Shown here piece by piece: positions 38,154-63,419 of a stretch of DNA of 64,000 nucleotides. The stretch lies in NCBI GenBank assembly GCA_001512485.1, contig LFRV01000074.1, positions 38,774 through 102,773 of the forward strand. Reading direction: 5' to 3'. Numbering within the stretch: position 1 is the first letter of the stretch; every line of letters begins with the position of its first letter. The DNA is from Clostridiales bacterium DTU069 (GTDB lineage: Bacteria; Bacillota; Clostridia; DSM-8532). Made by a program: the position numbers and the translations under genes. Below the pieces are notes generated by a model. It searched no databases and had not been told where the DNA came from. It saw only the letters and a list, made by a program, of their open reading frames with translations.

Positions 38154-39386
38154 TTACTGCATCATTCCGCTTATTCCACCCGCGCTTAAAAGAGTTCCGA
38201 CAGATAACAGGAACATGAATAAAGCCGCTCCAACAATCCCAACAATTGTTTTAATGCAGTCGGAGATATCCGAAAGGCAGTCGTACAAACGTTCCTCGGC
38301 AAAAGGTTCGACAATTGCTGCAGCGAATTGATAAAGCAGCGCTATCGCGAGAATTTTTAATACCGGAATAATGCATACGGCAAGAGTTATAATCATTGTT
38401 GCGATTCCCGCCGCGTTTTTAATAACCAGCGCACAGCTTAAAATTGTATCCGCGGCGTCGGCCATATATTTACCTGCAACGGGGATAATTGTGCTGATTG
38501 CCGTTTTTGCCGTTTTTGACACAGCCCCGTCGATTGTACCGCCGACAGCGCCCTGGATCATCGCTGCCGAACCGTAAACAGTCAGTACCCCCGCCAGCCC
38601 CCACGCCACAATCTGTTTTATCAGATCAGCCATACCGGTAATTTTTATCCTGTCGGACAAACCGCTGACTATATATAAAATTCCCGACAGCAGGCACAAA
38701 GGCAAAAACACATCACGGAGTATTTTAACGGTACCCTGTATTGCAAAAAGCAGCACAGGCTGCAGTGCGCTGCCCGATACGATATTACCGCTTGAAATTA
38801 ATAACGCAAGAAGCGCCGGTACGGCAAAACCAGTGATTTTATCAATCGTATCAAGCACTTCCCTTGCATACTGTAATACCGTTTGAAATCCGAGAGCAAT
38901 CATTGTGACAATAGCCCCGTAACAGGAAAAGTAAGCCAATTCCCCCACAGCGCTTTCCGCAAACGAGCTTTGAAGGTTTTTAACCATTGCCGTCAGGAAT
39001 ATAATCATAATGAGCTTCAGAATAAGACCGAAGTTTTGCCTGATCTCACCTATTACCGTGTCGATGGCCGCCTTCGGGAGCGATTTGACAGTTTCCCCGA
39101 CATTTCCCTTTACAAGTTCCTCCATAAGTTTTCCGGGTGAATATTGCGGAAACAGTTCTTTTGCCTCATCAGTAATGTTTTCTTCGAGATTCTTTTCAAG
39201 TTTTTTTACTTCACTGCCTTCCAATTGCCGCTTAATAATACTGTCCATCATCATTTCGTTGTCTTCGGCAGCACAGACAACCGGAAACGCGAACACGGCG
39301 AAGACAATAAGAACAATGATAAGCTTTTTGCGTAAAACCGCCGAAAGAATATTAAAACTATATGCAAAATGAGCACCTGAACACAT
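38154..39386 (-). CDS. spoIIIAE: Stage III sporulation protein AE
   Basis: Polytopic membrane protein with a signal-like N terminus. The start is set at the ATG preceded by GGGGGA; the ORF is open to 39470, inside spoIIIAD. Confidence 0.85.
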   Translation of the reverse strand: MCSGAHFAYSFNILSAVLRKKLIIVLIVFAVFAFPVVCAAEDNEMMMDSIIKRQLEGSEVKKLEKNLEENITDEAKELFPQYSPGKLMEELVKGNVGETVKSLPKAAIDTVIGEIRQNFGLILKLIMIIFLTAMVKNLQSSFAESAVGELAYFSCYGAIVTMIALGFQTVLQYAREVLDTIDKITGFAVPALLALLISSGNIVSGSALQPVLLFAIQGTVKILRDVFLPLCLLSGILYIVSGLSDRIKITGMADLIKQIVAWGLAGVLTVYGSAAMIQGAVGGTIDGAVSKTAKTAISTIIPVAGKYMADAADTILSCALVIKNAAGIATMIITLAVCIIPVLKILAIALLYQFAAAIVEPFAEERLYDCLSDISDCIKTIVGIVGAALFMFLLSVGTLLSAGGISGMMQ

Positions 39387-53151: not shown

Positions 53152-53280
53152 ATATTGTAACGATAATAAAGCCACTTCTTTGTCCACATCATTGTATTAT
53201 TTTGCCATTATTAATTTTGCGGAGTAAAAATTGATAATTTTTACAAGCTAAAAAAAATACCAATGACCAAGGGGGGTTTT

Positions 53281-55305
53281 ATGGCAAAAATCAAGTCGAT
53301 TTTGTCGCGTCTTTTTACATCCGGAAGTAACGGCTCCGATAAAAAATCCATCAGTCAGATTATAAAAAATAACACAAGAACAATGATTCTGATATTCGGC
53401 ATTGTTTCAATTGTCGTATCTGTTTTTGTGGCATTCTTTACATTGAACTCTGTACTGACGGATTCCGTCAAGGAAACGGCTGACCGTACCGCAACAATAG
53501 TCGAACTTGAGCTTAGCAGGTACAATTATATCTTACGGACAATGTCCATTGATAAGGTATTGATGTCTGAAACGGCAACCGTTGCGGAAAAATTGAGCCG
53601 CCTTAACGATTACGTGCGTCTGCATGGATTTGCTTCGGCAGTATGGATTAATGATCAAAAAATGGCGCATATAACAAACGATGTCACCGCGGATTTTTCA
53701 AACCGCGACTATCTTAATGACGCCATTGCAACAGGCCAGCCGACGGTTTCCAATGTATTTGTAGCGGTAGGAAGTGACTTCGCAATGAGCATAGTGCTGT
53801 GCTGTCCGGTATTTAATGAGAATCAGGAATATATAGGCGCAATCGGCACCGTTATTGACGCACAGCGTGTTACCGATCTCGTGAAGGAGTGTATTATCGG
53901 CGAACAAGGCCAGACTTTCATTGTAGACAGTAATGGAGTTATTGTCGCCCATCAGGATTATGACAATACTGTGGTAAACCAGCTCTCCGTAACGGAGTAT
54001 TATAAAGGTGCGGGCAGAATTGAAGATGCCGCGGTAAACAAAAAAAGCGGCATTATGAATATGTTTCTTGGCAAGAAATATTCTGTTGTAGCGTACCGCC
54101 AGATAGAAGGTTCCCGGGGATGGACGATTTTTGTAAGCGCATCCGTAACCGAATATATCACTCCTATTATTATCTGTCTGTTTATATTTATTGTAATTCT
54201 CGTCGTTTTAATGGTTATCTCCAGCGAAATTTCGAAGAAAAACGCCGAAAAACTTGCAATGCCGCTTAAACAGATTATTGAAAGACTTGAAAGACTTTCA
54301 GAAGGCGATCTTACGTCGGTTGCGGATCTTTCGACAACAACAACCGAAATGATTGAAATGAACAGGGCAATGAAAACCGCGGTTAATAACCTGAATAATA
54401 TTATTGTGAATATCAAGGAAAAACTTCTTCAGTTATCTAATGGAGACTTCAGATACGATATGGACAAAGAGCGGGATATTTATGTCGGTGATTTTGAAGC
54501 GTTGGTAGATTCCTTTATTAATGTAAAATCGATGTTATCTGTGGTTATAAATTCTATAAACGATACAAGCACACATGTCGCTTTGAGTGCGGACAACATG
54601 GCCGAGGGTTCGTCCAGTCTTGCTGAAAGTGTCGCAAACCAGAGCATTTCCGTAAATTCCGCCAATGACATTATTGAGCAAATAATTGAAGCCAGTAAAA
54701 AACAGGCTGAAAAATCGCAGGAACTTATTGTAAACATGAAAGAATCGACTGAAAAAATAGATACCGAATGTAAAGAAAGACTCGCCAATCTTAAACTGGC
54801 CATGAATGAAATTGTGAAGTCTTCGGCGGCAATTGAGTCGATTGTTGAAAATATAAGCGGTATTGCGAAACAGACATCACTGTTATCTTTGAATGCTTCA
54901 ATTGAAGCGGCAAGAGCGGGGGAACTGGGAAAAGGATTCGGTGTTGTAGCTGACGAAGTCGGTAAGCTGGCGAGTGAGAGCAGCGTTTCAGTAAGCAATA
55001 CGCATCGGCTCCTGTCGGAAGTAACGCAAGCGATTGAAAACAACAATTTGATAGTCAGCGATATAGAAAAATATTTCATGGAAGTATTAGAATACATTAA
55101 TCAGCTTGTTGGCTTTACGGAACAGGTAGTTGAGGACTTTATGAACAATTCACGGGAATCGCTTAAAATACAGCAGGAAATTAACGCTCTTACCACGACG
55201 ATAACCGACACATCAGCAACTGCCGAAGAATATGCAAGCATATCGGCTGAACTTGCCGAGCAGGCGGCAAAGCTGAAAGAAAACCTGAAAGTGTTCCAGG
55301 TATAA
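53281..55305 (+). CDS. Methyl-accepting chemotaxis protein (dCache-type sensor, HAMP, MA domain)
   Basis: Two TM helices flank a ~270-aa periplasmic-type domain, followed by a HAMP domain and a signalling hairpin ([33 protein letters not shown]). The start is at the ATG preceded by AAGGGGGG. Confidence 0.92.
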
Positions 55306-55333: not shown

Positions 55334-55367
55334 AGCAGAGGTTTTCGTCAGAAAACCCCTGCTTTTT
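55334..55367 (+). terminator. Rho-independent terminator after the MCP gene, between convergent genes
   Basis: AGCAGAGGTTTTC gtca GAAAACCCCTGCT (12 of 13 positions paired) followed by TTTTT. Confidence 0.75.
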
Positions 55368-55392: not shown

Positions 55393-57045
55393 TCAGTCAC
55401 CCCATACCTTGTTAAATAACCTGTATAAAACTGTCGCAGCTTCCGCCCTTGTCATTTTCTCCTTAGGAAGCAGCTTTCCTCCCGCACCGATAATAATTTT
55501 TTCCTCGACCAGAACAGCAGCGCTCTCCAAAGCTTCAGCAGACACAAGACTTGCATCCGAAAACTCATTCAGCATATCATAATTTTGATACTCAGCCTGC
55601 CCCGCATCCGGCTTTGCGTATTTCAATGCCGAAGCAGTGAACATCATCATTTCTTCTCTTGTTATAGGAGCCCTTGGTCTGAAGAGATTTCCGTCCGCTT
55701 TAACAATACCTGTCTTTTTTGCTATCCCCACCGTATGATAAAAATAATCGTCAGGCGTAACATCGTCAAAATTAGTCTCCACTGTGGTCGTTATACCCAG
55801 CATTCTCACGAGCAGTGTAACGTAATCGGCACGAGTTATGTCATACTGGTACCCGAACAAATTGTTGGGAAGTCCTTTGATAATACCGCGGGAGGCCATC
55901 ACGTCCACATATTTTCGCGACCAGTGATCTATAACATCGTCAAAGGTTTTCTTAACAAAAGTTACGGCGAACGTACCAAAATAGTTTGTCGCAAAGCTTA
56001 CGACTTTTTGCTGATTATTATATACTCCCGTTTCAACAGGTTTTGCATTTCCTTCTGCATCAATATGCCATACAACAATATGTTCAAAGTCCGCTGCTTC
56101 TTCCACAGTTGGATCGTATGGTATCGCCGCGCGGACAAAAGCATTTGGATTACTCAATGTAATCGCATTTCCGTTTACGTCAATTTGTATTGTGATAACA
56201 GGCCTGCTGCCTATCTGTTCTTTCAGCGCCTCATTAAAATTACCGGTATCCGCGATACCTATTTTTATTGAAGCATATTCCGCATTATGCGCCATTTCAC
56301 CCGTAAGTATGTTCCCGGGGATCCGGACAGTCCCTAAAGGGGTCATTATTATATAAAAGGTTTCCGGAATCGGGTTTGACAGTGCCTGTACGGGAAATCT
56401 CTGAACATATTCTTTGGCATCCCCGGTTTGCAATATTTCTATTTCAATTGTCTTTATCCCTGATGAATCGGCCTGTACTTCCGATAACAAACCTTCGATT
56501 TGTGTCATTGACAATATCGCGGTCGCTGTCCCGGTTTCCTCGTCCATTACCGGTTCCAGTACCAGATTGGCTCTGCGAACCGCCACAGAAATCGATTTGC
56601 CCGACATATATGTTTGTGATGACAATTTTGAATCCACCGTTCTGAACGACTCAAGTTTGATTGAAGCCATGCCCGATGCTTTCCCCCGGAAAGTAATCGT
56701 ACTGAGTTTCATGTTTCCGTTCTCGCCATCCACATCTCCCACTTTTGTAAAAGCAATGTATGCCTTATCTCCTTCTATCTTCGGAGAAACGGAAAAACCG
56801 TTTATTAACGATACTGTCTTTATTAATTCAAGTTTTTCGCTGTCAAACGACAAAACCGCCTCGTAAGCATAAAGGTCATTCAGATTAATCCCATCCAGGG
56901 AAATATTTATAATAGAGCTTCCTGCACCGGCACTGTCCGCCGCGGATATTGAAAAAACTGTCTCCGCGGCAAAACTCACGTTCGGGCTGGTCACTGTCAT
57001 GGAAGTCAGAACGGCCATAAGCACGTATACAACAAAACGTTTCAT
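55393..57045 (-). CDS. Cell-surface anchoring protein: signal peptide, one cohesin-like module, a ~210-aa spacer domain and three SLH repeats
   Basis: 550 aa counted from the ATG with an AAGGAGGA RBS. It has the cohesin-like FSISAADSAGAGSSIINISLDGINLNDLYAYEAVLSFDSEKLELI and C-terminal SLH repeats (FDDVIDHWSRKYVDVMASRGIIKG; FDDVTPDDYFYHTVGIAKKTGIV; FSDASLVSAEALESAAVLVEEKII). Confidence 0.75.
   Translation of the reverse strand: MKRFVVYVLMAVLTSMTVTSPNVSFAAETVFSISAADSAGAGSSIINISLDGINLNDLYAYEAVLSFDSEKLELIKTVSLINGFSVSPKIEGDKAYIAFTKVGDVDGENGNMKLSTITFRGKASGMASIKLESFRTVDSKLSSQTYMSGKSISVAVRRANLVLEPVMDEETGTATAILSMTQIEGLLSEVQADSSGIKTIEIEILQTGDAKEYVQRFPVQALSNPIPETFYIIMTPLGTVRIPGNILTGEMAHNAEYASIKIGIADTGNFNEALKEQIGSRPVITIQIDVNGNAITLSNPNAFVRAAIPYDPTVEEAADFEHIVVWHIDAEGNAKPVETGVYNNQQKVVSFATNYFGTFAVTFVKKTFDDVIDHWSRKYVDVMASRGIIKGLPNNLFGYQYDITRADYVTLLVRMLGITTTVETNFDDVTPDDYFYHTVGIAKKTGIVKADGNLFRPRAPITREEMMMFTASALKYAKPDAGQAEYQNYDMLNEFSDASLVSAEALESAAVLVEEKIIIGAGGKLLPKEKMTRAEAATVLYRLFNKVWGD
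55396..55947 (-). other. Module: three S-layer homology (SLH) repeats of the anchor protein
   Basis: The C-terminal 184 aa contain three repeats beginning F(D/S)D(V/A), each followed by a helical G-I-hydrophobic pattern. Confidence 0.75.
56581..56964 (-). other. Module: cohesin-like domain of the anchor protein
   Basis: aa ~28-155, with a beta-rich alternating pattern, L.FD...LELI and ITFRGKASG. Boundaries are approximate. Confidence 0.6.
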
Positions 57046-57074
57046 GAAGAATCCTCCTTTTTTTGTCATTCCCG

Positions 57075-58550
57075 CTACGGTTGTTCCAGTATCTTTTTTG
57101 CTATAAATATGATATCGAGAATATCCACTATGCCATCCGGTTTTCCGTTTTTCCCTGTAACATCACAGTGTCTTGCCTGTTCCCATTCTGGATCTCCTGC
57201 CTGGGTCATGTAATTATATGCAGCTATCGCCAAATCTCCTGCATTAATAACACCATCGTAATTTACATCTCCCAATATACCGGGAATTCCGGTTATGGTT
57301 ATTCCCTGGGATGTGTTTCCGTCAGAATCCATAGTTTTCAAAACAAACTGATATACCTCTCCATTAATAAGGTCCGGAATAGTTATACTCTGCTGGCCTT
57401 TTGCGACGATATACGAGTCTGTTTCGTTTACTATCACCAAAATCCGGTCATATTCGTTACCGGGAGGGTCTATCCATGCCAGCGATATTGCGGAATTCCC
57501 GGGAAGTACTATAACATCCGATACTTCGGGAAGAGTAATTCGGGATATCGTTATATTGATGGAATTAGAGGCAACAGGGATCTGTTCACCGGGAGGAGCA
57601 GTTCCTGCTAAAGCCCGTTCAAGCCGGAAACAGCCGGTATAATTCTCCATTGCATTCTCCGCTTTAAAATTCAGTGTAATCATGCGAATTCCCTGCCCCG
57701 TTATCGGCACGCCATTACCGGCAACAAATATCCTTACGCTTCCTTCGGAGTTGTCGTCCACACGAACAACTGTGATATTCTCCGGTCCGTCATAACATAA
57801 ATACTGAAAGTAATCAGCATCATACTCCAGAACCGCTTGAATCGCATATATATCGGTACGTGAAGCATATACATCCATAGTGACCGAAAAGCTTTGCCCG
57901 CTTTTTACTGCTACGGGACCACTAAGATGAATTCTTATCCCTGCCTCGGGAACTGACGTGATCTCCACACCCTCGGATTCATTCCCGGAAGTGTCCAGCG
58001 CGGTAATGACAAAACGGTACTCTGTTCCATTATCAAGGCCATCGATTAATAACCGCTCCACTCCCTTATCGACATCAATAACTCCGTTTGGACCTGTTAT
58101 TCGAATTCGATCCAAATCGTTGTCAACCGGATCATTCCATTTCAACAAAACACATCCGTCGTCCGGTATCCCATATGCATTTGATACCGGGCCAGGTGGT
58201 GTCTCATCCCGTGGAATACCGAAAACAACTGTTTCATCCAGAATAACCCCCGTGTCGCTTATAATTGATAACCGAAACGAATATTCTATCCCGTTTATAA
58301 GATCAGCAAAAACCGCCTGTTGAACTCCCTTTTCGACATACACCGTTTTTCCTGCGCCGGTAATTTTGACCCGGGCAAAAAAGCTGTTATCAGGATCCTG
58401 CCACTGTAACGTGATCTGCCCATCCGATTCAATTACAGAGACATCTGTATCGGAAATGCCTGCTCCGGCGGAAGAAGGATTTATAAAGGTTATTATAAGA
58501 ATGAGCATCAGGAACATACCGGTCTTTTTATATAAATTTCTTTTTTGCAT
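57075..58550 (-). CDS. Adaptor-type protein: signal peptide, two Fn3-like modules, a cohesin-like module, a third Fn3-like module and a C-terminal dockerin
   Basis: 491 aa counted from the ATG with a GAGGTGA RBS. The Fn3-like repeats share the pattern W.DP...(D/F).R(I/V).(I/V)...KG.Q...(I/F).DL.NG.EY.F. The cohesin-like segment is SGPVAVKSGQSFSVTMDVYASRTDIYAIQAVLEYDADYFQY. The dockerin is GDVNYDGVINAGDLAIAAY...CDVTGKNGKPDGIVDILDIIFIAKKIL. Confidence 0.75.
   Translation of the reverse strand: MQKRNLYKKTGMFLMLILIITFINPSSAGAGISDTDVSVIESDGQITLQWQDPDNSFFARVKITGAGKTVYVEKGVQQAVFADLINGIEYSFRLSIISDTGVILDETVVFGIPRDETPPGPVSNAYGIPDDGCVLLKWNDPVDNDLDRIRITGPNGVIDVDKGVERLLIDGLDNGTEYRFVITALDTSGNESEGVEITSVPEAGIRIHLSGPVAVKSGQSFSVTMDVYASRTDIYAIQAVLEYDADYFQYLCYDGPENITVVRVDDNSEGSVRIFVAGNGVPITGQGIRMITLNFKAENAMENYTGCFRLERALAGTAPPGEQIPVASNSINITISRITLPEVSDVIVLPGNSAISLAWIDPPGNEYDRILVIVNETDSYIVAKGQQSITIPDLINGEVYQFVLKTMDSDGNTSQGITITGIPGILGDVNYDGVINAGDLAIAAYNYMTQAGDPEWEQARHCDVTGKNGKPDGIVDILDIIFIAKKILEQP
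57078..57272 (-). other. Module: dockerin of the adaptor protein
   Basis: Two Ca-binding-loop-plus-helix segments are present (DVNYDGVINAGDLAIAAY; DVTGKNGKPDGIVDILDIIFIAKKI). The second loop carries a 5-residue insertion. Confidence 0.7.
57540..57944 (-). other. Module: cohesin-like domain of the adaptor protein
   Basis: aa ~203-337 of the 491-aa protein. Boundaries are approximate. Confidence 0.6.
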
Positions 58551-58617
58551 AGATTTCACCTCTGAATATGAGAACTTGTCCATAATTACCGCTTTATTTG
58601 TAATTTATTGAATAAAC

Positions 58618-58646
58618 TAAATATCACTGTCTCCTGCAATATGCAA
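58618..58646 (-). promoter_or_regulatory. Candidate sigma-A promoter for the adaptor-anchor gene pair (TTGCAT-17-TATTTA)
   Basis: Hexamer match about 70 nt upstream of the adaptor ATG. Confidence 0.3.
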
Positions 58647-58705
58647 GGATAAAATTAAACCAAGAAACGTGTACTTTTTCAGGCTGTTTGCATTACCTGA
58701 TAATG

Positions 58706-58737
58706 ATATGGGCAGAATTTTAAATTCTGCCCATATC
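58706..58737 (-). terminator. Hairpin after the GH10 enzyme gene (terminator-like, poor U tract)
   Basis: ATATGGGCAGAATTT ta AAATTCTGCCCATAT is a perfect 15-bp palindromic stem, 17 nt downstream of the stop. Confidence 0.45.
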
Positions 58738-58753
58738 AATAATAATTATCTGT

Positions 58754-61700
58754 TTAATCAATAATGCTTCTTGCGATAATTGCAAGGTCTATAATGTCAA
58801 CAATACCGTCATTGTTCACATCGGCTATTTGTGCCTGCGGCCAGTTTTCGCTGGAACTGTCGGCGTGGTAATAATATGCCGCTATAGCCAGGTCTCCAAT
58901 GTCGATACTATCGTTACCGTTCAGATCCCCAATAAGTACGGTTACGGTACAAGTTGCCGTCTTACCGCCGTCTTCGGTGGTGACCGTAATGATTGCTTCC
59001 CCGTTTCCAACCGCGGTAACTACGCCGTCTTCCACAACAGCAACATCCGTATTGCTTGAAGACCAGGTTACATTCTTATTCGTCGCGTTTGCCGGCTCAA
59101 CGGTGGCGGTAAGCTGTGCGCTTTGACCAATTTTTGTCAGGTACAGGCTCGTTTTGTCAAGGCTTACACCTTCAACAGGAACTGTTGTATCAATGGTAAC
59201 AGTGACCGTACAGTCAGCGGTAAATCCACCATCCTCGGTAGTAACGGTTATAACCGCTGTTCCTTCACCAACCGCAGTGACAACACCGTTATCAACCACA
59301 GCGACGCTTGGGTTGCTTGTAGACCATGTTACATTCTTGTTTGTCGCGTCGGCGGGTTCAACAGTCGCTGTTAGAGTTTTGCTCTGACCTATCTCGCTTA
59401 ATGTCAGGGTTGTTTTGTCGAGACTTACTCCTGTTACAGGAATACCCGAAACGGATACCGACAATATGCCGCCGGAAGCCTTAATTACCGTTCCTTCCGG
59501 AGCAACACCCAATTCCGCCGATGATACCGAGATTACACCGGTTTGACCAATAGCTTCGGAGGCCTGGAATTTCAGTTTAAACAGAGAATCATTTCCGGTA
59601 AGCGCATCCGTATTGAATGCAATAATACGCAGTATTCCAGGCTCCAATTCAGTTTCTTCGTTAGGAACTATTATCTCAACGTCTTCGGCCGCTTCCACAT
59701 CCAAAAGGGTAAACAACTGCGAATTGTACGTAATAACGATATCTTCCGCGTATACATTACCACACACGTTTTCCATATCCACTTCTACGATAAACTCACT
59801 GCCAGACTGTATTTCAGCTGCCCCCTTCAATACCACCGCATTCTCAAGAGCACTTGCAACCGTCACCTGGGCTGTTGCCTTTTCTACGCAGCCTTCAATT
59901 TTACCTTGCACCGTAAATACTCCGGGGCTTGCATAGCTCTGCGGATCTATCTCATCCCATACGACTGCCCGCTCTTCCGGAACAATCCCGGTATCGTTGT
60001 GGTTTACGGATACGATCACTGTTTCAGGCAGTACGGGAGCAACCCCAGGAACCGTTTCAACCGCAACGTCTTCAATGCCTCTGATTTTGCTCTTTGAGAA
60101 GAACCAGTCTATCAGCATGCCGTGTTCCGGGTCAACATATTCATTATATGCCGGCAGCCATGAGCAATGCGGATCAAATACCCATCCGTTGTAAGGAGGA
60201 TTATTAAGTTTATTTTCGGGGAAAACTGTCAGCATCGAGTCGTTCCAATATTGACTGTAGGTATTATAAGTATTGACAACCATGCCATATAGAAAATCAT
60301 CGTCATCGACAAAGGTCCAAAGAGGCAGATAGGCCACCTTCAGTGCGTTTTCCACGTTTCCGGGTCCGCCGGCAGGACATATCGGCGCGGCTGCCGCAGG
60401 GACGTCGGGGAAATTCTGGAGGAAGGTCCAGGTAGCTCCTCCGCCCATCGAGAACCCGGTTATATAGATACGGTTAGGATCAACTTTACCGTCGGCTATC
60501 CATGTATCTACAAGCGCTTTTACTTTTTGCATTGCTGCGGCGGTAGTCGCATTGCGCGGGGCAAGAACATGGCACGGATACCTGGCCTGGTTTTCGGGGT
60601 TTGCCCAAACGGTACCGCCGTTGCTGAAACGGATAGGCGTGTATATATCATTCCCCTGTCCGCCGCCGTGATTGAAAATTACGAGTGGAAGCGGTTCATC
60701 AATTTCATCGTTCCAGAAATAACTGTAATCCAGTCCGTCATAATTTGCGTATTTAAACTTATCAAGCACAGGGCTTACAACACCGGTCTGAACAAATGCT
60801 TCAGGTATAATTTGGGTCCCGTCTGCACAGTCTATATGAGTACCGCTGAAGGTAATTGTGTACTGTGAATCAAATGTATATCCCCCGTCATTTGTGTATC
60901 CGCCGTCATCCCATCCTACGTCAGGAAAGTCAATAACAATATATTGTCCCGTATCGGAAGGATAACCCACATCATTCACTTTGCTTACATAAACGTCAAT
61001 TATTTCGCGCGGTCCGTCATACCAGACATAGCTCGGGTCCACTATTCTTGTGGCGCGTACATGCGCGCTCCAGTCGGAAATATTCAAAGAGGAGCCGATT
61101 ACTTCTTTTTTTGCGTCTATGATCAATGCGTCTGTGCGCTCATGGAAGGCGAAGTTTTCATTTCTGAGTATAAACGGTAGTTTGGAATAATCTTCTTTAA
61201 TCAACAGCGGAACAGCTTTCGATGCGAGAAGTATGTCTCCATCATATACATCGACAATAATCCTGTACTGTCCTGCTTCAAGAGTTTCGGAGATTGAAAC
61301 CGTTCCGGTGCCGTTTATTAGCTGAAACTCATCGCTGTACTTAATGCCGTCTTTCTCCAGGCAGGCAATAACATTATAATTCCCGATACCCTCGGCAGTT
61401 GCGTTAACGGTGATATCGGCCGGATCACCGGCAAATATTTCACCGGGGTCCGCTGAAATAGTCAAGTCATAAAGTGAACGCGGCGTAAGGCCTTTTTCCA
61501 TCAAATAGCCGCTTGGATCAAGAACCGCATAGAACGCTTCTTTTGCGGCAAATGTGCGATCAAACAACTGTGGGCTGTAATCACCGCGCCAGCTTCTGTT
61601 ATCTGAGTGGCCCCAAAAGGTTACTCGTGTGATGTGTGCATCATAGGCCTTGTAATATTCAAACAGACGAGCATAATAGATGGCCTGTTCTACCTGTTGT

Positions 61701-63178
61701 TCGTATGTAAGGATTGGAGAAGTCGGCCCATTATAATGGCCTACGGGAACATCAAGTTCGGACGCGGTAATCCTGACTCCGGCTTTAATAAAACGTTGAA
61801 TGGTTTTTTCAATTTCGGAAACATCCGGATGCTCAGTATGGTGGTGAGACTGCATACCAAGTCCTTCAATCAGTTTGCGGCTGGGGTCGGTATTGCGCGG
61901 ATCGGTTTTCCATTTTTCGTTCAGTTCTTCAGCCATCAGCGCCATTGCTTCCCGTTTCCAGTCATCTGTTTCATTATAATCGTTGTATTCAAGCACTGCG
62001 TTCGGGTCTGCGAGGCGCGCAAAGACAAACGCGTCGTAGATATAGTCTGCCCCGCTTTCGCCCTTTGTTGTATCGGCTCCGTTTTCATAGGCTCTGTACC
62101 ATGGGGAGCCCTTTCTTAAGACGTCTCTCCAATCATCGAACGGAAGAGAACCGCCGTCGAAAGCCTCGTTAACAACATCCCACGAAATAACTTTACCGGC
62201 ATAGTAACCTGCGACATTGCTGATAAATTCCTCCATGTTTTCACGGGCTTCTTCACGGGTAACAGGAGTTTTGTCAGGGTTATTCGTCAGCCAGCTTGCA
62301 GATTGAGAATGCCACACCAATGTGTGCCCATGAAGCAGGAGCCCATTCTCCTGAGCCCAGGTAACAATCGGTTCGGCGCCCGAAAAGTCATATTGGCCTT
62401 TTCCGCTGCTGAGATACATCGGTTTCATACTGTTTTCCGCCGTGACGACATTGTAATGAAGTTTATACATTGCGGTAGTATCGGCATCCATTTGATGGGG
62501 CGATATTACATTTCCAATCATGAAACTGTCCTTATATGCTTCTGCGAGTGAAGGCAGCGTAAGATCCCACTCAGGACGTACGATTACGATATTGTCAATA
62601 TACCAGGCATCAGGGTGGCTTGATTCACTGTCTCCCCAAAACCGGAAATCAATGCTCCTAATGTCCTCTGTCATTACAGGTGTACTGACGCTAAGCGTTC
62701 TCCAGGTGTCCATCTGTATAAATCCTGAGCTCCATGGGCTTGATGGAAGGTTATATTCTGTATTCGAGTAATCACCGTTTAATACAATCCCAAGTCCCAA
62801 CATCCATGATTTGTTTTGGTTTAGCTCAGAAGGAACATAATAGGATACCCGGATATCATAACTTGCGCCTGCGGGCAGAGGCTCGGGCAGATTCAGCCGT
62901 ATTGCGTTGTCGGCATTAGCGTAGCTCTCTCCGTCGATGTGGTTTGCGCGAAGAACAAAATCATCATCAAAACCCATGCCGCTGCCACTGTCCCAAACGA
63001 CTTCGGAAGCTGATGACGGGACAAACCAGGTTTCCTGTTCAAGTTTTTCAGCAGGAGTAAAAGTGAACTTATACAACTCATTAGAGGCAAATACCGGAAT
63101 TGAAATAAATAATCCAAATAAAAGAACAGCGGTTAAAACCAGCGAAACGCCGGATTTTAATAAATGTTTTTTGTACAT
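58754..63178 (-). CDS. Multimodular secreted enzyme: CBM22-like module, GH10 xylanase, Ig-like modules, alpha/beta-hydrolase carbohydrate esterase, Big_4-like module, cohesin-like module, two Big_2 modules and a dockerin
   Basis: 1474-aa ORF with an AAAGGAGGAG RBS and a signal peptide. GH10 catalytic motifs WDVVNEAF and ITASELDV are present, as are the esterase motifs VIFNHGGG and the GFSMGG nucleophile elbow. The C terminus has a cohesin-like module, Big_2 repeats and the dockerin GDLNGNDSIDIGDLAIAAY...DVNNDGIVDIIDLAIIARSI. Confidence 0.85.
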   Translation of the reverse strand: MYKKHLLKSGVSLVLTAVLLFGLFISIPVFASNELYKFTFTPAEKLEQETWFVPSSASEVVWDSGSGMGFDDDFVLRANHIDGESYANADNAIRLNLPEPLPAGASYDIRVSYYVPSELNQNKSWMLGLGIVLNGDYSNTEYNLPSSPWSSGFIQMDTWRTLSVSTPVMTEDIRSIDFRFWGDSESSHPDAWYIDNIVIVRPEWDLTLPSLAEAYKDSFMIGNVISPHQMDADTTAMYKLHYNVVTAENSMKPMYLSSGKGQYDFSGAEPIVTWAQENGLLLHGHTLVWHSQSASWLTNNPDKTPVTREEARENMEEFISNVAGYYAGKVISWDVVNEAFDGGSLPFDDWRDVLRKGSPWYRAYENGADTTKGESGADYIYDAFVFARLADPNAVLEYNDYNETDDWKREAMALMAEELNEKWKTDPRNTDPSRKLIEGLGMQSHHHTEHPDVSEIEKTIQRFIKAGVRITASELDVPVGHYNGPTSPILTYEQQVEQAIYYARLFEYYKAYDAHITRVTFWGHSDNRSWRGDYSPQLFDRTFAAKEAFYAVLDPSGYLMEKGLTPRSLYDLTISADPGEIFAGDPADITVNATAEGIGNYNVIACLEKDGIKYSDEFQLINGTGTVSISETLEAGQYRIIVDVYDGDILLASKAVPLLIKEDYSKLPFILRNENFAFHERTDALIIDAKKEVIGSSLNISDWSAHVRATRIVDPSYVWYDGPREIIDVYVSKVNDVGYPSDTGQYIVIDFPDVGWDDGGYTNDGGYTFDSQYTITFSGTHIDCADGTQIIPEAFVQTGVVSPVLDKFKYANYDGLDYSYFWNDEIDEPLPLVIFNHGGGQGNDIYTPIRFSNGGTVWANPENQARYPCHVLAPRNATTAAAMQKVKALVDTWIADGKVDPNRIYITGFSMGGGATWTFLQNFPDVPAAAAPICPAGGPGNVENALKVAYLPLWTFVDDDDFLYGMVVNTYNTYSQYWNDSMLTVFPENKLNNPPYNGWVFDPHCSWLPAYNEYVDPEHGMLIDWFFSKSKIRGIEDVAVETVPGVAPVLPETVIVSVNHNDTGIVPEERAVVWDEIDPQSYASPGVFTVQGKIEGCVEKATAQVTVASALENAVVLKGAAEIQSGSEFIVEVDMENVCGNVYAEDIVITYNSQLFTLLDVEAAEDVEIIVPNEETELEPGILRIIAFNTDALTGNDSLFKLKFQASEAIGQTGVISVSSAELGVAPEGTVIKASGGILSVSVSGIPVTGVSLDKTTLTLSEIGQSKTLTATVEPADATNKNVTWSTSNPSVAVVDNGVVTAVGEGTAVITVTTEDGGFTADCTVTVTIDTTVPVEGVSLDKTSLYLTKIGQSAQLTATVEPANATNKNVTWSSSNTDVAVVEDGVVTAVGNGEAIITVTTEDGGKTATCTVTVLIGDLNGNDSIDIGDLAIAAYYYHADSSSENWPQAQIADVNNDGIVDIIDLAIIARSIID
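58757..58930 (-). other. Module: dockerin of the GH10 enzyme
   Basis: DLNGNDSIDIGDLAIAAY and DVNNDGIVDIIDLAIIARSI are separated by a 17-aa linker (YYHADSSSENWPQAQIA). Confidence 0.75.
58931..59437 (-). repeat. Tandem duplication encoding two Big_2 (bacterial Ig-like group 2) modules, period about 261 nt
   Basis: The protein repeats V(T/E)GVSLDKT.L.L..IGQS..LTATVEPA(D/N)ATNKNVTWS.SN..VAVV..GVVTAVG.G.A.ITVTTEDGG.TA.CTVTV are highly similar, and the DNA is visibly repeated. Confidence 0.85.
59438..59851 (-). other. Module: cohesin-like domain inside the GH10 enzyme
   Basis: VVLKGAAEIQSGSEFIVEVDMENVCGNVYAEDIVITYNSQLFTLLDVEAAEDVEII...LFKLKFQASEAIGQTGVISVSSAEL. Its pattern resembles the cohesin-like modules of the two downstream genes. 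Confidence 0.6.
60089..60766 (-). other. Module: alpha/beta-hydrolase esterase catalytic domain (Ser in GFSMGG at 60449-60451)
   Basis: aa ~805-1030 contain PLPLVIFNHGGG, RIYITGFSMGGGATW and FDPHCSW. The substrate (feruloyl or acetyl xylan) cannot be decided by eye. Confidence 0.65.
61514..62566 (-). other. Module: GH10 catalytic domain
   Basis: aa ~205-555, with acid/base Glu in WDVVNEA and nucleophile Glu in TASELD. Confidence 0.85.
62579..63082 (-). other. Module: N-terminal CBM22/CBM_4_9-like carbohydrate-binding module
   Basis: aa ~33-200 form a beta-sandwich-type sequence preceding GH10, as in many GH10 xylanases. The family assignment is tentative. Confidence 0.5.
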
Positions 63179-63419
63179 GATACTCCTCCTTTAAATATAT
63201 GTTTTTTAGGATTTGAAATAAAAGATTCACTGATCACGTATCCTGTTCACAATATCCCCCCCTTATGTGTGTTTTTTATTACATTTATATTTATTTCCCG
63301 GGTGCCGCTGGACTTGTAAGAATTAGTTTTGTTTGCATTTTAAAGTGTTTCTGACAATAATCTCAACTATTATATAGTGTCCAGGTAATATTGAAAGGTG
63401 AATAGGGCTAAGCACTCAT

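Follow-up and report, generated by a model that had tools for sequence, protein, structure and literature searches.

Can cohesins and dockerins fix an enzyme to a cell surface without a multi-cohesin scaffoldin? Cohesin-dockerin biology rests almost wholly on cellulosomes built on such scaffoldins, and the role of "non-cellulosomal" cohesins and dockerins is a long-standing loose end. The question is raised in compact, genetically linked form by a 64,000-nucleotide stretch of contig LFRV01000074.1 from Clostridiales bacterium DTU069 (positions 38,774 to 102,773; the window, hereafter), in which three consecutive minus-strand open reading frames (ORFs) fill positions 55393-63178. The three proteins, a large enzyme, a fibronectin type III (Fn3) "adaptor" and an S-layer homology (SLH) anchor, carry three cohesins, two dockerins and one SLH triplet between them, a count made in a first-pass annotation of the sequence and confirmed by Pfam, profile comparison and AlphaFold2/Foldseek. 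The cluster is not unique to the window: it belongs to a large family with members in many Paenibacillus species. On balance, we consider it somewhat probable that it is a scaffoldin-free, operon-like cassette that would tether a secreted GH10 xylanase/esterase at the wall of the Gram-positive cell via the anchor cohesin, with proteins that end in a cohesin and a dockerin (clients) stacking there.

The enzyme gene (58754..63178, minus strand) encodes 1474 residues comprising a signal peptide, an N-terminal module, a GH10 domain, an Ig-like module with an alpha/beta-hydrolase esterase, Big_4, a cohesin, two Big_2 modules and a dockerin. It is followed by the adaptor gene (57075..58550, minus strand; 491 residues), which encodes a signal peptide, two Fn3 modules, a cohesin, a third Fn3 module and a dockerin, with no catalytic domain, and by the anchor gene (55393..57045, minus strand; 550 residues), which encodes a signal peptide, a cohesin, an X module and three SLH repeats. 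All three N-termini pass from basic to hydrophobic to small residues, as read from the sequence, and are thus Sec signal-peptide-like. Before start choice, the full-length adaptor and anchor ORFs span 57075-58583 and 55393-57069. The starts at 58550 and 57045 are favored because ribosome-binding sites lie 6-7 nt 5' of these ATGs (GAGGTG at 58550, AGGAGG at 57045), and public gene calls have lengths identical to 491 and 550 residues. From the coordinates, 29 nt separate the adaptor stop from the anchor start, just as the first-pass annotation had it. Its figure of 170 nt between enzyme and adaptor holds only when counting starts at the longer ORF's first in-frame ATG; from the enzyme stop to the start of the 491-residue adaptor, the distance is 203 nt.

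Most of the modular architecture first read for the enzyme is supported by Pfam, in which the thresholds are 24.1 bits for Cohesin (PF00963) and 22.9 bits for Dockerin_1 (PF00404). The GH10 xylanase catalytic domain (residues 210-554; 61517..62551, minus strand) is a full-length match to PF00331 at 267 bits. The EstA_Ig_like and alpha/beta-hydrolase region (residues 674-1030; 60089..61159, minus strand) is carbohydrate esterase-like, with weak-to-moderate Pfam/NCBIfam matches to esterase and PHB-depolymerase families and a GFSMGG nucleophile elbow, and Pfam also places Big_4 in the protein. The N-terminal module of about 175 residues (62564..63082, minus strand) had been labelled a carbohydrate-binding module, a label left unverified by Pfam and PDB sequence searches, which gave no significant match. 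This module is an optional accessory, since the orthologue in a related metagenome-assembled genome (MAG; L013:4137-8039) lacks it and opens directly with GH10.

The enzyme cohesin (residues 1110-1246; 59441..59851, minus strand) belongs to the client clade described below and matches the family hidden Markov model (HMM) with an E value of 8e-37. In Pfam it reaches 46.4 bits (E 6e-12) only when scanned as an isolated module (residues ~1100-1247), and no Cohesin match appears in the whole-protein Pfam scan or in the precomputed public annotation. Cohesins within long multidomain enzymes are probably under-counted systematically in genome censuses. Two Big_2 modules (residues 1247-1410; 58949..59440, minus strand; Pfam Big_2 99.8 bits in two stretches) form the spacer between this cohesin and the dockerin, and a homologue search with the C-terminal 441 residues returned matches dominated by Big_2 repeat proteins. 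The enzyme dockerin (residues 1415-1474; 58757..58936, minus strand) is identified by Pfam Dockerin_1 (28.6 bits), the family HMM (E 1.5e-27) and alignment.

Pfam finds fn3, Cohesin (28.7 bits) and Dockerin_1 (26.6 bits) in the adaptor, and neither Pfam nor NCBIfam finds an enzyme family there. The AlphaFold2 model has the Fn3-Fn3-cohesin-Fn3 portion at a predicted local distance difference test score (pLDDT) of 80-90, and its Foldseek matches are Fn3 arrays and the Clostridium perfringens cohesin-FN3 construct 2w1n. These three methods bear out the original reading of a non-catalytic Fn3-Fn3-cohesin-Fn3-dockerin protein. The adaptor cohesin (residues 203-338; 57537..57944, minus strand), supported by Pfam, the tree, AlphaFold2 and the Foldseek match to 2w1n, is of a distinct client-type subclade. 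The adaptor dockerin (residues 425-491; 57078..57278, minus strand), identified by Pfam and alignments and modelled by AlphaFold2 with low confidence, is a subtype that has a 5-residue insertion in the second calcium-binding loop and an invariant Cys. With one cohesin, one dockerin and no catalytic module, the protein has the architecture of a monovalent adaptor scaffoldin. Its cohesin-spacer-dockerin tail is the same as that of the enzyme and about 50 other client proteins, and by tree and alignment the adaptor descends from the client clade.

The anchor was first read as a 550-residue cohesin-spacer-SLHx3 protein, and hhalign, AlphaFold2/Foldseek and Pfam SLH agree. Its cohesin (residues 27-160; 56566..56967, minus strand) scores 20.6 bits in Pfam, below the cutoff, so that of the three cohesin calls Pfam itself supports those of the adaptor and the isolated enzyme module. 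We nevertheless conclude that the anchor module is a genuine cohesin, because its profile matches the client-cohesin profile in hhalign (probability 98.2%, E 4e-14), because its model matches known cohesins in Foldseek, and because several anchor homologues have precomputed Pfam Cohesin calls. The model has a pLDDT of 78 overall and ~85-93 in the cohesin module, and its best Foldseek matches are the C. perfringens cohesins 2vo8 and 2jh2 (TM 0.75-0.79), with Archaeoglobus fulgidus 2xdh and OlpA/OlpC also among them. The SLH triplet (residues 366-550; 55396..55950, minus strand; Pfam SLH 83.9 bits in three stretches) has a profile match to the Bacillus anthracis Sap SLH (E 6e-19) and Foldseek matches to 3pyw and 6bt4.

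Between cohesin and SLH triplet lies the X module (residues 161-365; 55951..56565, minus strand), which has no Pfam family, is modelled at a pLDDT of ~85-95 and is common to SdbA-type anchoring scaffoldins. A 640-residue Acetivibrio straminisolvens protein shares 38% identity with the window anchor over 390 residues of X and SLH (E 4e-84). This protein is an SdbA orthologue, as its cohesin matches the solved SdbA type II cohesin (E ~1e-76), but BLASTP detected no similarity between that cohesin and the anchor cohesin. A signal peptide, a cohesin and three SLH repeats make the anchor an SLH anchoring scaffoldin by architecture; it differs from the SdbA type in that its cohesin is not type II by BLASTP and has non-cellulosomal cohesins as its best structural neighbors. 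The X module recurs in many very large surface proteins, where it stands before the SLH triplet at the C-terminus; these proteins, of 1000-3700 residues, come from Clostridia, Paenibacillus, Syntrophomonas and Pelotomaculum (L024-L091).

Do these modules fall into classes that suggest who binds whom? The three window cohesins are 21-27% identical to one another. In a neighbor-joining tree, anchor cohesins group apart from client cohesins, both clades cover Clostridia and Paenibacillus, and within the window's own family the Fn3-protein and enzyme cohesins are sister subclades. The two classes have different signatures, DLYAYEAV...GFSV.PK...AFTK.G in anchors and A.[LA]G..P.G in clients. The dockerins, by comparison, are one family with a near-symmetric consensus, GDLN..G..DIGDLAI.AY.YGK......W..AK.AD.N.DG.VDI.DLA.IA..IL., and the two in the window are 46% identical with a nearly identical helix-1 motif. 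Both show two calcium-binding loop-helix repeats and exceed the Pfam threshold. Neither has the Ser-Thr pair, positions 10-11 being I-G and I-I in the enzyme and A-G and I-L in the adaptor; recognition positions are hydrophobic across the family consensus (DIGDL / DIxDL), which separates these dockerins from canonical type I. A "two-faced dockerin", with helix 1 directed to the anchor cohesin and helix 3 to client cohesins, was considered and dropped, since the two halves are similarly conserved and near-symmetric.

Rates of change also differ between the classes. In a comparison of seven lineages, conservation is highest in the dockerins and the anchor cohesin and lowest in the two client cohesins, with 51-52% identity at the deepest nodes for the anchor cohesin versus 30-40% for client cohesins. 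The slowest-evolving module is the enzyme dockerin and the fastest is the adaptor cohesin.

Local cohesin, dockerin, X and SLH models built from the window were used on related loci. Full-length relatives of the anchor occur in metagenomes at 44-100% identity, relatives with 68-82% identity occur in three digester MAGs, and full-length homologues with ~28-34% identity occur in ~16 Paenibacillus genomes. Every full-length cohesin-X-SLH anchor is adjoined by one to three same-strand genes for large proteins that end in a cohesin and a dockerin. The order of enzyme, Fn3 protein and anchor is kept in L007, where the anchor is 66% identical and the flanking genes are entirely different; in L009 and L097 the Fn3 protein and anchor are kept alongside other enzymes and extra clients, the adaptor gene of L009 not being adjacent to the anchor gene. 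The adaptor was found in all seven lineages of the window's family; in L012, L095 and L096 it is detected by tblastn (90.6% identity). In at least seven diverged lineages the three genes are kept together while their genomic neighborhoods differ, which speaks for a functional unit. A two-component version without the adaptor is found in the ~16 Paenibacillus genomes, and L100-type cassettes likewise lack it.

The association of cohesin with dockerin does not depend on having started from the anchor. An anchor-independent metagenome scan seeded with the dockerin returned 16 loci in which every dockerin ORF has an upstream cohesin, with cohesin-SLH anchors in several. In total, the family yielded 52 distinct dockerin ORFs, and a cohesin is present in 50 of them; of the other two, one is a truncated fragment and the other a 1725-residue Paenibacillus protein. 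The spacing between cohesin and dockerin is quantized at ~0, 80, 165 and 257 residues, equal to 0-3 Ig-like modules (Big_2, Fn3 or FIVAR). Clients are varied secreted carbohydrate-active enzymes and allied proteins, among them GH10-esterase, GH10, GH3, GH43, PL11 rhamnogalacturonan lyase, GDSL esterase, FG-GAP and metallophosphoesterase proteins. An exhaustive search with the anchor cohesin alone returned 337 representative clusters, 145 of them at E<=1e-10, and in nearly all of the best 150 of the 337 representatives the anchor-type cohesin directly follows the signal peptide. Lengths of the anchor-cohesin proteins are bimodal, at ~340 residues (cohesin-SLH) and ~550 residues (cohesin-X-SLH).

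Several members of the family depart from these forms. The short anchor (~335-345 residues, cohesin then SLH without X; e.g., L100:8259-9263) is about as common among the representatives as the 550-residue form. Beside a related cassette, on the opposite strand, L009:12108-12809 (minus strand) encodes a lone secreted client-type cohesin of 233 residues (Pfam 32.5 bits), which could be a dockerin cap or competitor. In Thermoanaerobacterium sp. DL9XJH110 (L074), a 1117-residue cohesin protein in which no dockerin was detected, a cohesin-less X-SLH protein and a 711-residue protein with a cohesin and SLH are encoded in a row.

Is the cassette transcribed as one unit? The best promoter-like site 5' of the enzyme gene, TTGAGA-18-TAAAAT (63337..63366, minus strand), matches the consensus at 10 of 12 positions and, as a consensus match only, is a candidate; it sits in the 464-nt gap after an upstream AP-endonuclease-family gene. 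The first-pass annotation had placed both a hairpin and a promoter-like site between enzyme and adaptor. The hairpin is real, but the consensus scan found no promoter-like site above its threshold on the coding strand of this gap, which is unconserved between orthologues. The hairpin (58705..58737, minus strand) has a perfect 15-bp stem and a 3-nt loop, begins 17 nt after the enzyme stop and has no U-tract. It recurs at the equivalent place in all six orthologous loci examined (the window, L012, L013, L007, L014 and L097) while the flanking intergenic sequence diverges; L007 has a compensatory T-A to C-G change, and in L097 the sequence is unrelated and still folds. In the alignment, 86.5% of cells are paired versus 34-48% in slid registers. 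A second, terminator-like hairpin found by scan and sequence (55334..55363) separates the anchor gene from the convergent chemoreceptor gene, with a good U-tract on the plus strand and a short one on the minus strand, and is the probable end of the transcription unit. The simplest reading is one transcription unit in which the internal hairpin, possibly an attenuator or an mRNA-stabilizing 3' end, would modulate the ratio of enzyme to structural-gene mRNA.

From this material we propose how such a scaffoldin-free cassette would work. The SLH triplet would hold the wall non-covalently, probably via pyruvylated secondary cell-wall polymer, as the similarity to the Sap SLH suggests, and the anchor-type cohesin would receive the family's dockerins close to the wall. 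Each client is predicted to dock by its C-terminal dockerin while presenting its own client-type cohesin, 0-3 Ig-like modules upstream. Because every client carries a cohesin of its own, a docked client would supply a new docking site, and clients might stack head-to-tail on an anchored client or on one another, as experiments have demonstrated for Ruminococcus bromii Amy4. The Fn3 protein would be a client without a catalytic domain, its four or five Ig-like domains forming a rod that most likely spaces or extends the stack and that possibly switches type as a link. The hairpin after the enzyme gene probably sets differing mRNA levels for the enzyme and the structural genes. A conserved anchor cohesin with fast-changing client cohesins fits such a hub with stacking at least as well as it fits a fixed linear chain. 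The proposal can be carried further, to a site-regenerating display in which the single-cohesin SLH anchor nucleates mixed polymers on the wall, enzymes and Fn3 spacers joining head-to-tail without a fixed end, with anchor-type cohesins starting the chain and client-type cohesins extending it; we regard this extended form as possible but would not bet on it.

Several observations weigh against the scaffoldin-free cassette. Given the differing signatures of anchor and client cohesins, one dockerin may not bind both, and the fast evolution of client cohesins could mean that they are not dockerin receptors. The binding steps are ones that we infer, from models of single chains in which the adaptor dockerin is of low confidence, and covariation in the hairpin amounts to only two double changes among six sequences, which is not significant. 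In addition, a near-identical MAG bears the label Ruminiclostridium sp., some members of that group produce cellulosomes, and the window is 64 kb of the genome.

How the parts connect could also be read differently. In a strict linear chain, the adaptor dockerin would bind only the anchor cohesin and the enzyme dockerin only the adaptor cohesin, leaving the enzyme cohesin free at the distal end. The adaptor's own cohesin subclade and its dockerin subtype, with the loop insertion and Cys, are what specific, non-redundant pairings would be expected to produce; the adaptor occurs in all seven lineages, its gene is tightly coupled to that of the anchor (29 nt), and type switching has been proposed for monovalent adaptors such as ScaC (PMC11557425). 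We nonetheless find this chain rather doubtful. The Paenibacillus and L100-type cassettes have no adaptor, from which it follows that client dockerins ancestrally need none, and the adaptor gene of L009 does not stand beside its anchor gene. Helix 1 is almost identical in both dockerins, and a pair consisting of the slowest module (the enzyme dockerin) and the fastest (the adaptor cohesin) is unlike one that co-evolves tightly. Fast client cohesins would instead be explained if each co-evolved solely with its own dockerin, as it might if the client dockerin folded onto the cohesin of the same polypeptide as a self-cap, clasp or stabilizer, so that attachment to the anchor, if any, would need the clasp to open. 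The near-obligatory presence of both modules in one polypeptide (50/52) suits such an intramolecular pairing, and the flexible multi-domain spacers of the window's family would permit fold-back. In Paenibacillus, however, the linker is ~0 residues, a length that, judging from the cohesin fold, would leave little room for canonical face-on binding in cis; the single-chain AlphaFold2 model of the adaptor gives no confident compact arrangement (predicted TM score, pTM, 0.49; dockerin pLDDT below 50); and the Amy4 precedent has been attributed mainly to intermolecular oligomerization (PMC12663171). We therefore judge fold-back improbable.

A different kind of alternative places the three proteins at the periphery of a larger, conventional cellulosome whose other genes lie elsewhere in the genome, the dockerins plugging into a multi-cohesin scaffoldin and the anchor binding that scaffoldin's dockerin as SdbA does. 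The homology of the anchor's X-SLH part to SdbA, the Ruminiclostridium label and the small visible portion of the genome all favor it. Against this, the anchor cohesin is not type II and is nearest to non-cellulosomal C. perfringens cohesins, and the dockerins, lacking the Ser-Thr pair, form one family with those of Paenibacillus. No ORF with two or more cohesins was found in the window or ~40 related loci, so that no scaffoldin of the conventional cellulosome is seen in the DNA examined, and a six-frame translation of the 64-kb window searched with family-specific HMMs yielded no further cohesin or dockerin. A conventional bank of cohesin-less dockerin enzymes is likewise not seen, the window having two dockerins and nearly all dockerin ORFs of the family a cohesin, which upholds the initial observation that the window has neither a multi-cohesin scaffoldin nor such a bank. 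Nearly all dockerins of Paenibacillus guangzhouensis also lie in cohesin-bearing proteins (PMC11557425), and on this evidence we give the larger cellulosome little chance. Less credible still is that the modules do not interact at all, the cohesins being Ig-like spacers or carbohydrate-binding modules, the dockerins calcium-binding stabilizers, and the gene linkage mere co-regulation. Pfam scores for the window dockerins and two of the cohesins are indeed modest, two C. perfringens cohesin-bearing enzymes gave no dockerin binding by enzyme-linked immunosorbent assay (PMC12997984), and a literature search found no experiments on systems of this kind, which pair cohesin-dockerin enzymes with an SLH-cohesin anchor. 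Non-interacting modules would, however, hardly explain why anchor cohesin, client cohesin and client dockerin persistently occur together in distant taxa and beside many catalytic domains, or why the anchor cohesin and dockerins are strongly conserved.

The closest published counterpart of the scaffoldin-free cassette is P. guangzhouensis, in which Minor et al. (2024) counted 28 proteins that each bear one dockerin-cohesin pair, frequently beside a glycoside hydrolase domain, along with five SLH anchors, and suggested an "enzyme-rich surface" unlike a cellulosome (PMC11557425). Shared with the window are enzymes with single cohesin-dockerin pairs, SLH anchors with a single cohesin, and the near-confinement of dockerins to cohesin-bearing proteins. 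The same logic was therefore already known computationally, as a one-genome census without gene linkage, anchor and client clades or a non-catalytic Fn3 member. Homology to this species is drawn from the genomes of ~16 congeners, the species itself lying outside the loci compared. In Paenibacillus the cohesin abuts the dockerin, whereas in the window one or two Ig-like modules separate them.

Among anchoring scaffoldins, SdbA is the nearest, with a signal peptide, one N-terminal cohesin, a middle region and an SLH triplet, and the cohesins of OlpA/OlpC are, as noted, among the Foldseek matches. The partner of SdbA is the X-dockerin of a scaffoldin with nine cohesins, of which the window DNA shows no counterpart; the window anchor differs further in its non-type II cohesin, which has no detectable sequence similarity to that of SdbA. 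Stacking has its precedent in R. bromii Amy4, whose cohesin binds its own dockerin and which aggregates unless the dockerin is removed (PMC4611034, PMC12663171). Amy4 resembles the clients in having a catalytic domain, one cohesin and one dockerin per polypeptide, and the amylosome also has wall-bound single-cohesin anchors, Sca2 and Sca5. The likeness is one of architecture. Amy4 belongs to a GH13 starch system with sortase rather than SLH anchoring, and it is an exception among amylosome enzymes, whereas every client here has the pair.

In both sequence and fold the nearest solved cohesins are those of C. perfringens NagJ, NanJ and NagH (2vo8, 2jh2, 2ozn, 2w1n), although the sequence similarity is weak (E 0.003 to 0.5). 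The first-pass comparison with non-cellulosomal cohesin-dockerin pairs was therefore apt. In some related clients a FIVAR module precedes the dockerin, and C. perfringens dockerins likewise follow a FIVAR module. There too, single cohesins are borne by enzymes with no scaffoldin, and such cohesins bind enzyme-borne dockerins according to a statement in PMC12997984 that cites Adams et al. The C. perfringens system differs in that cohesin and dockerin are usually on separate enzymes, there is no SLH cohesin anchor, and the targets are mucin and host glycans. The Fn3 protein resembles monovalent adaptors such as Ruminococcus flavefaciens ScaC, defined by one cohesin, one dockerin and no catalytic module (PMC11557425), but it falls in a clade of enzyme-borne cohesin-dockerin tails and has no primary scaffoldin to plug into. 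Its cohesin and dockerin show only subtype differences, and type switching is putative. Another genetically linked minimal system is ClcC/ClcD of Cellulosilyticum lentocellum, a demonstrated heterodimer encoded by adjacent genes ~40 bp apart (PMC13487519). That pair has one cohesin and one dockerin on separate proteins; the cohesin protein has a CBM3 and no SLH, and the dockerin is canonical type I. New here are the Clostridia lineage with the same logic as P. guangzhouensis and its operon-level linkage across many genomes, the separate anchor and client cohesin clades, the quantized spacers, the conserved non-catalytic Fn3 member with its own subtypes, and the SdbA-like wall-binding part bearing a swapped cohesin.

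The remainder of the window encodes flagellar, sporulation and housekeeping genes, and we therefore take it to be chromosomal DNA of an uncultured spore-forming Clostridium-class bacterium. In tetranucleotide composition the cluster correlates with the rest of the window at 0.87, and candidate client loci from the same digester metagenomes do so at 0.64-0.89. Identical proteins were found in anaerobic-digester metagenomes, and NCBI annotates all three as "hypothetical protein" in a "Clostridiaceae bacterium" MAG (GX211_07805/10/15, the enzyme being GX211_07815). The convergent gene at 53263-55305 (plus strand) encodes a dCache_1/MCP chemoreceptor; it adjoins the anchor gene in all near-identical contigs (L001-L006) and not in L007, and no functional link was seen between it and the cassette. 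One contig with an identical adaptor and anchor (ENA ERZ3460576; L002:5000-21000) has the enzyme gene cut to its last 93 residues, the dockerin. Upstream of this remnant are an IS91/Y2-type transposase, a seryl-tRNA synthetase fragment and a 203-residue ORF, which appears again downstream beside full serS. Either a transposon-mediated rearrangement deleted the xylanase or the assembly is chimeric.

If clients chain head-to-tail on the anchor and the roles of anchor-type and client-type cohesins differ, the cassette would be a simple natural design for enzyme display on Gram-positive walls, with use in engineered surface display and in the study of hemicellulose degradation in biogas reactors. 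The site-regenerating form, if true, would amount to a way of assembly that cellulosomes do not use and that hundreds of lineages in Clostridia and Paenibacillus share.

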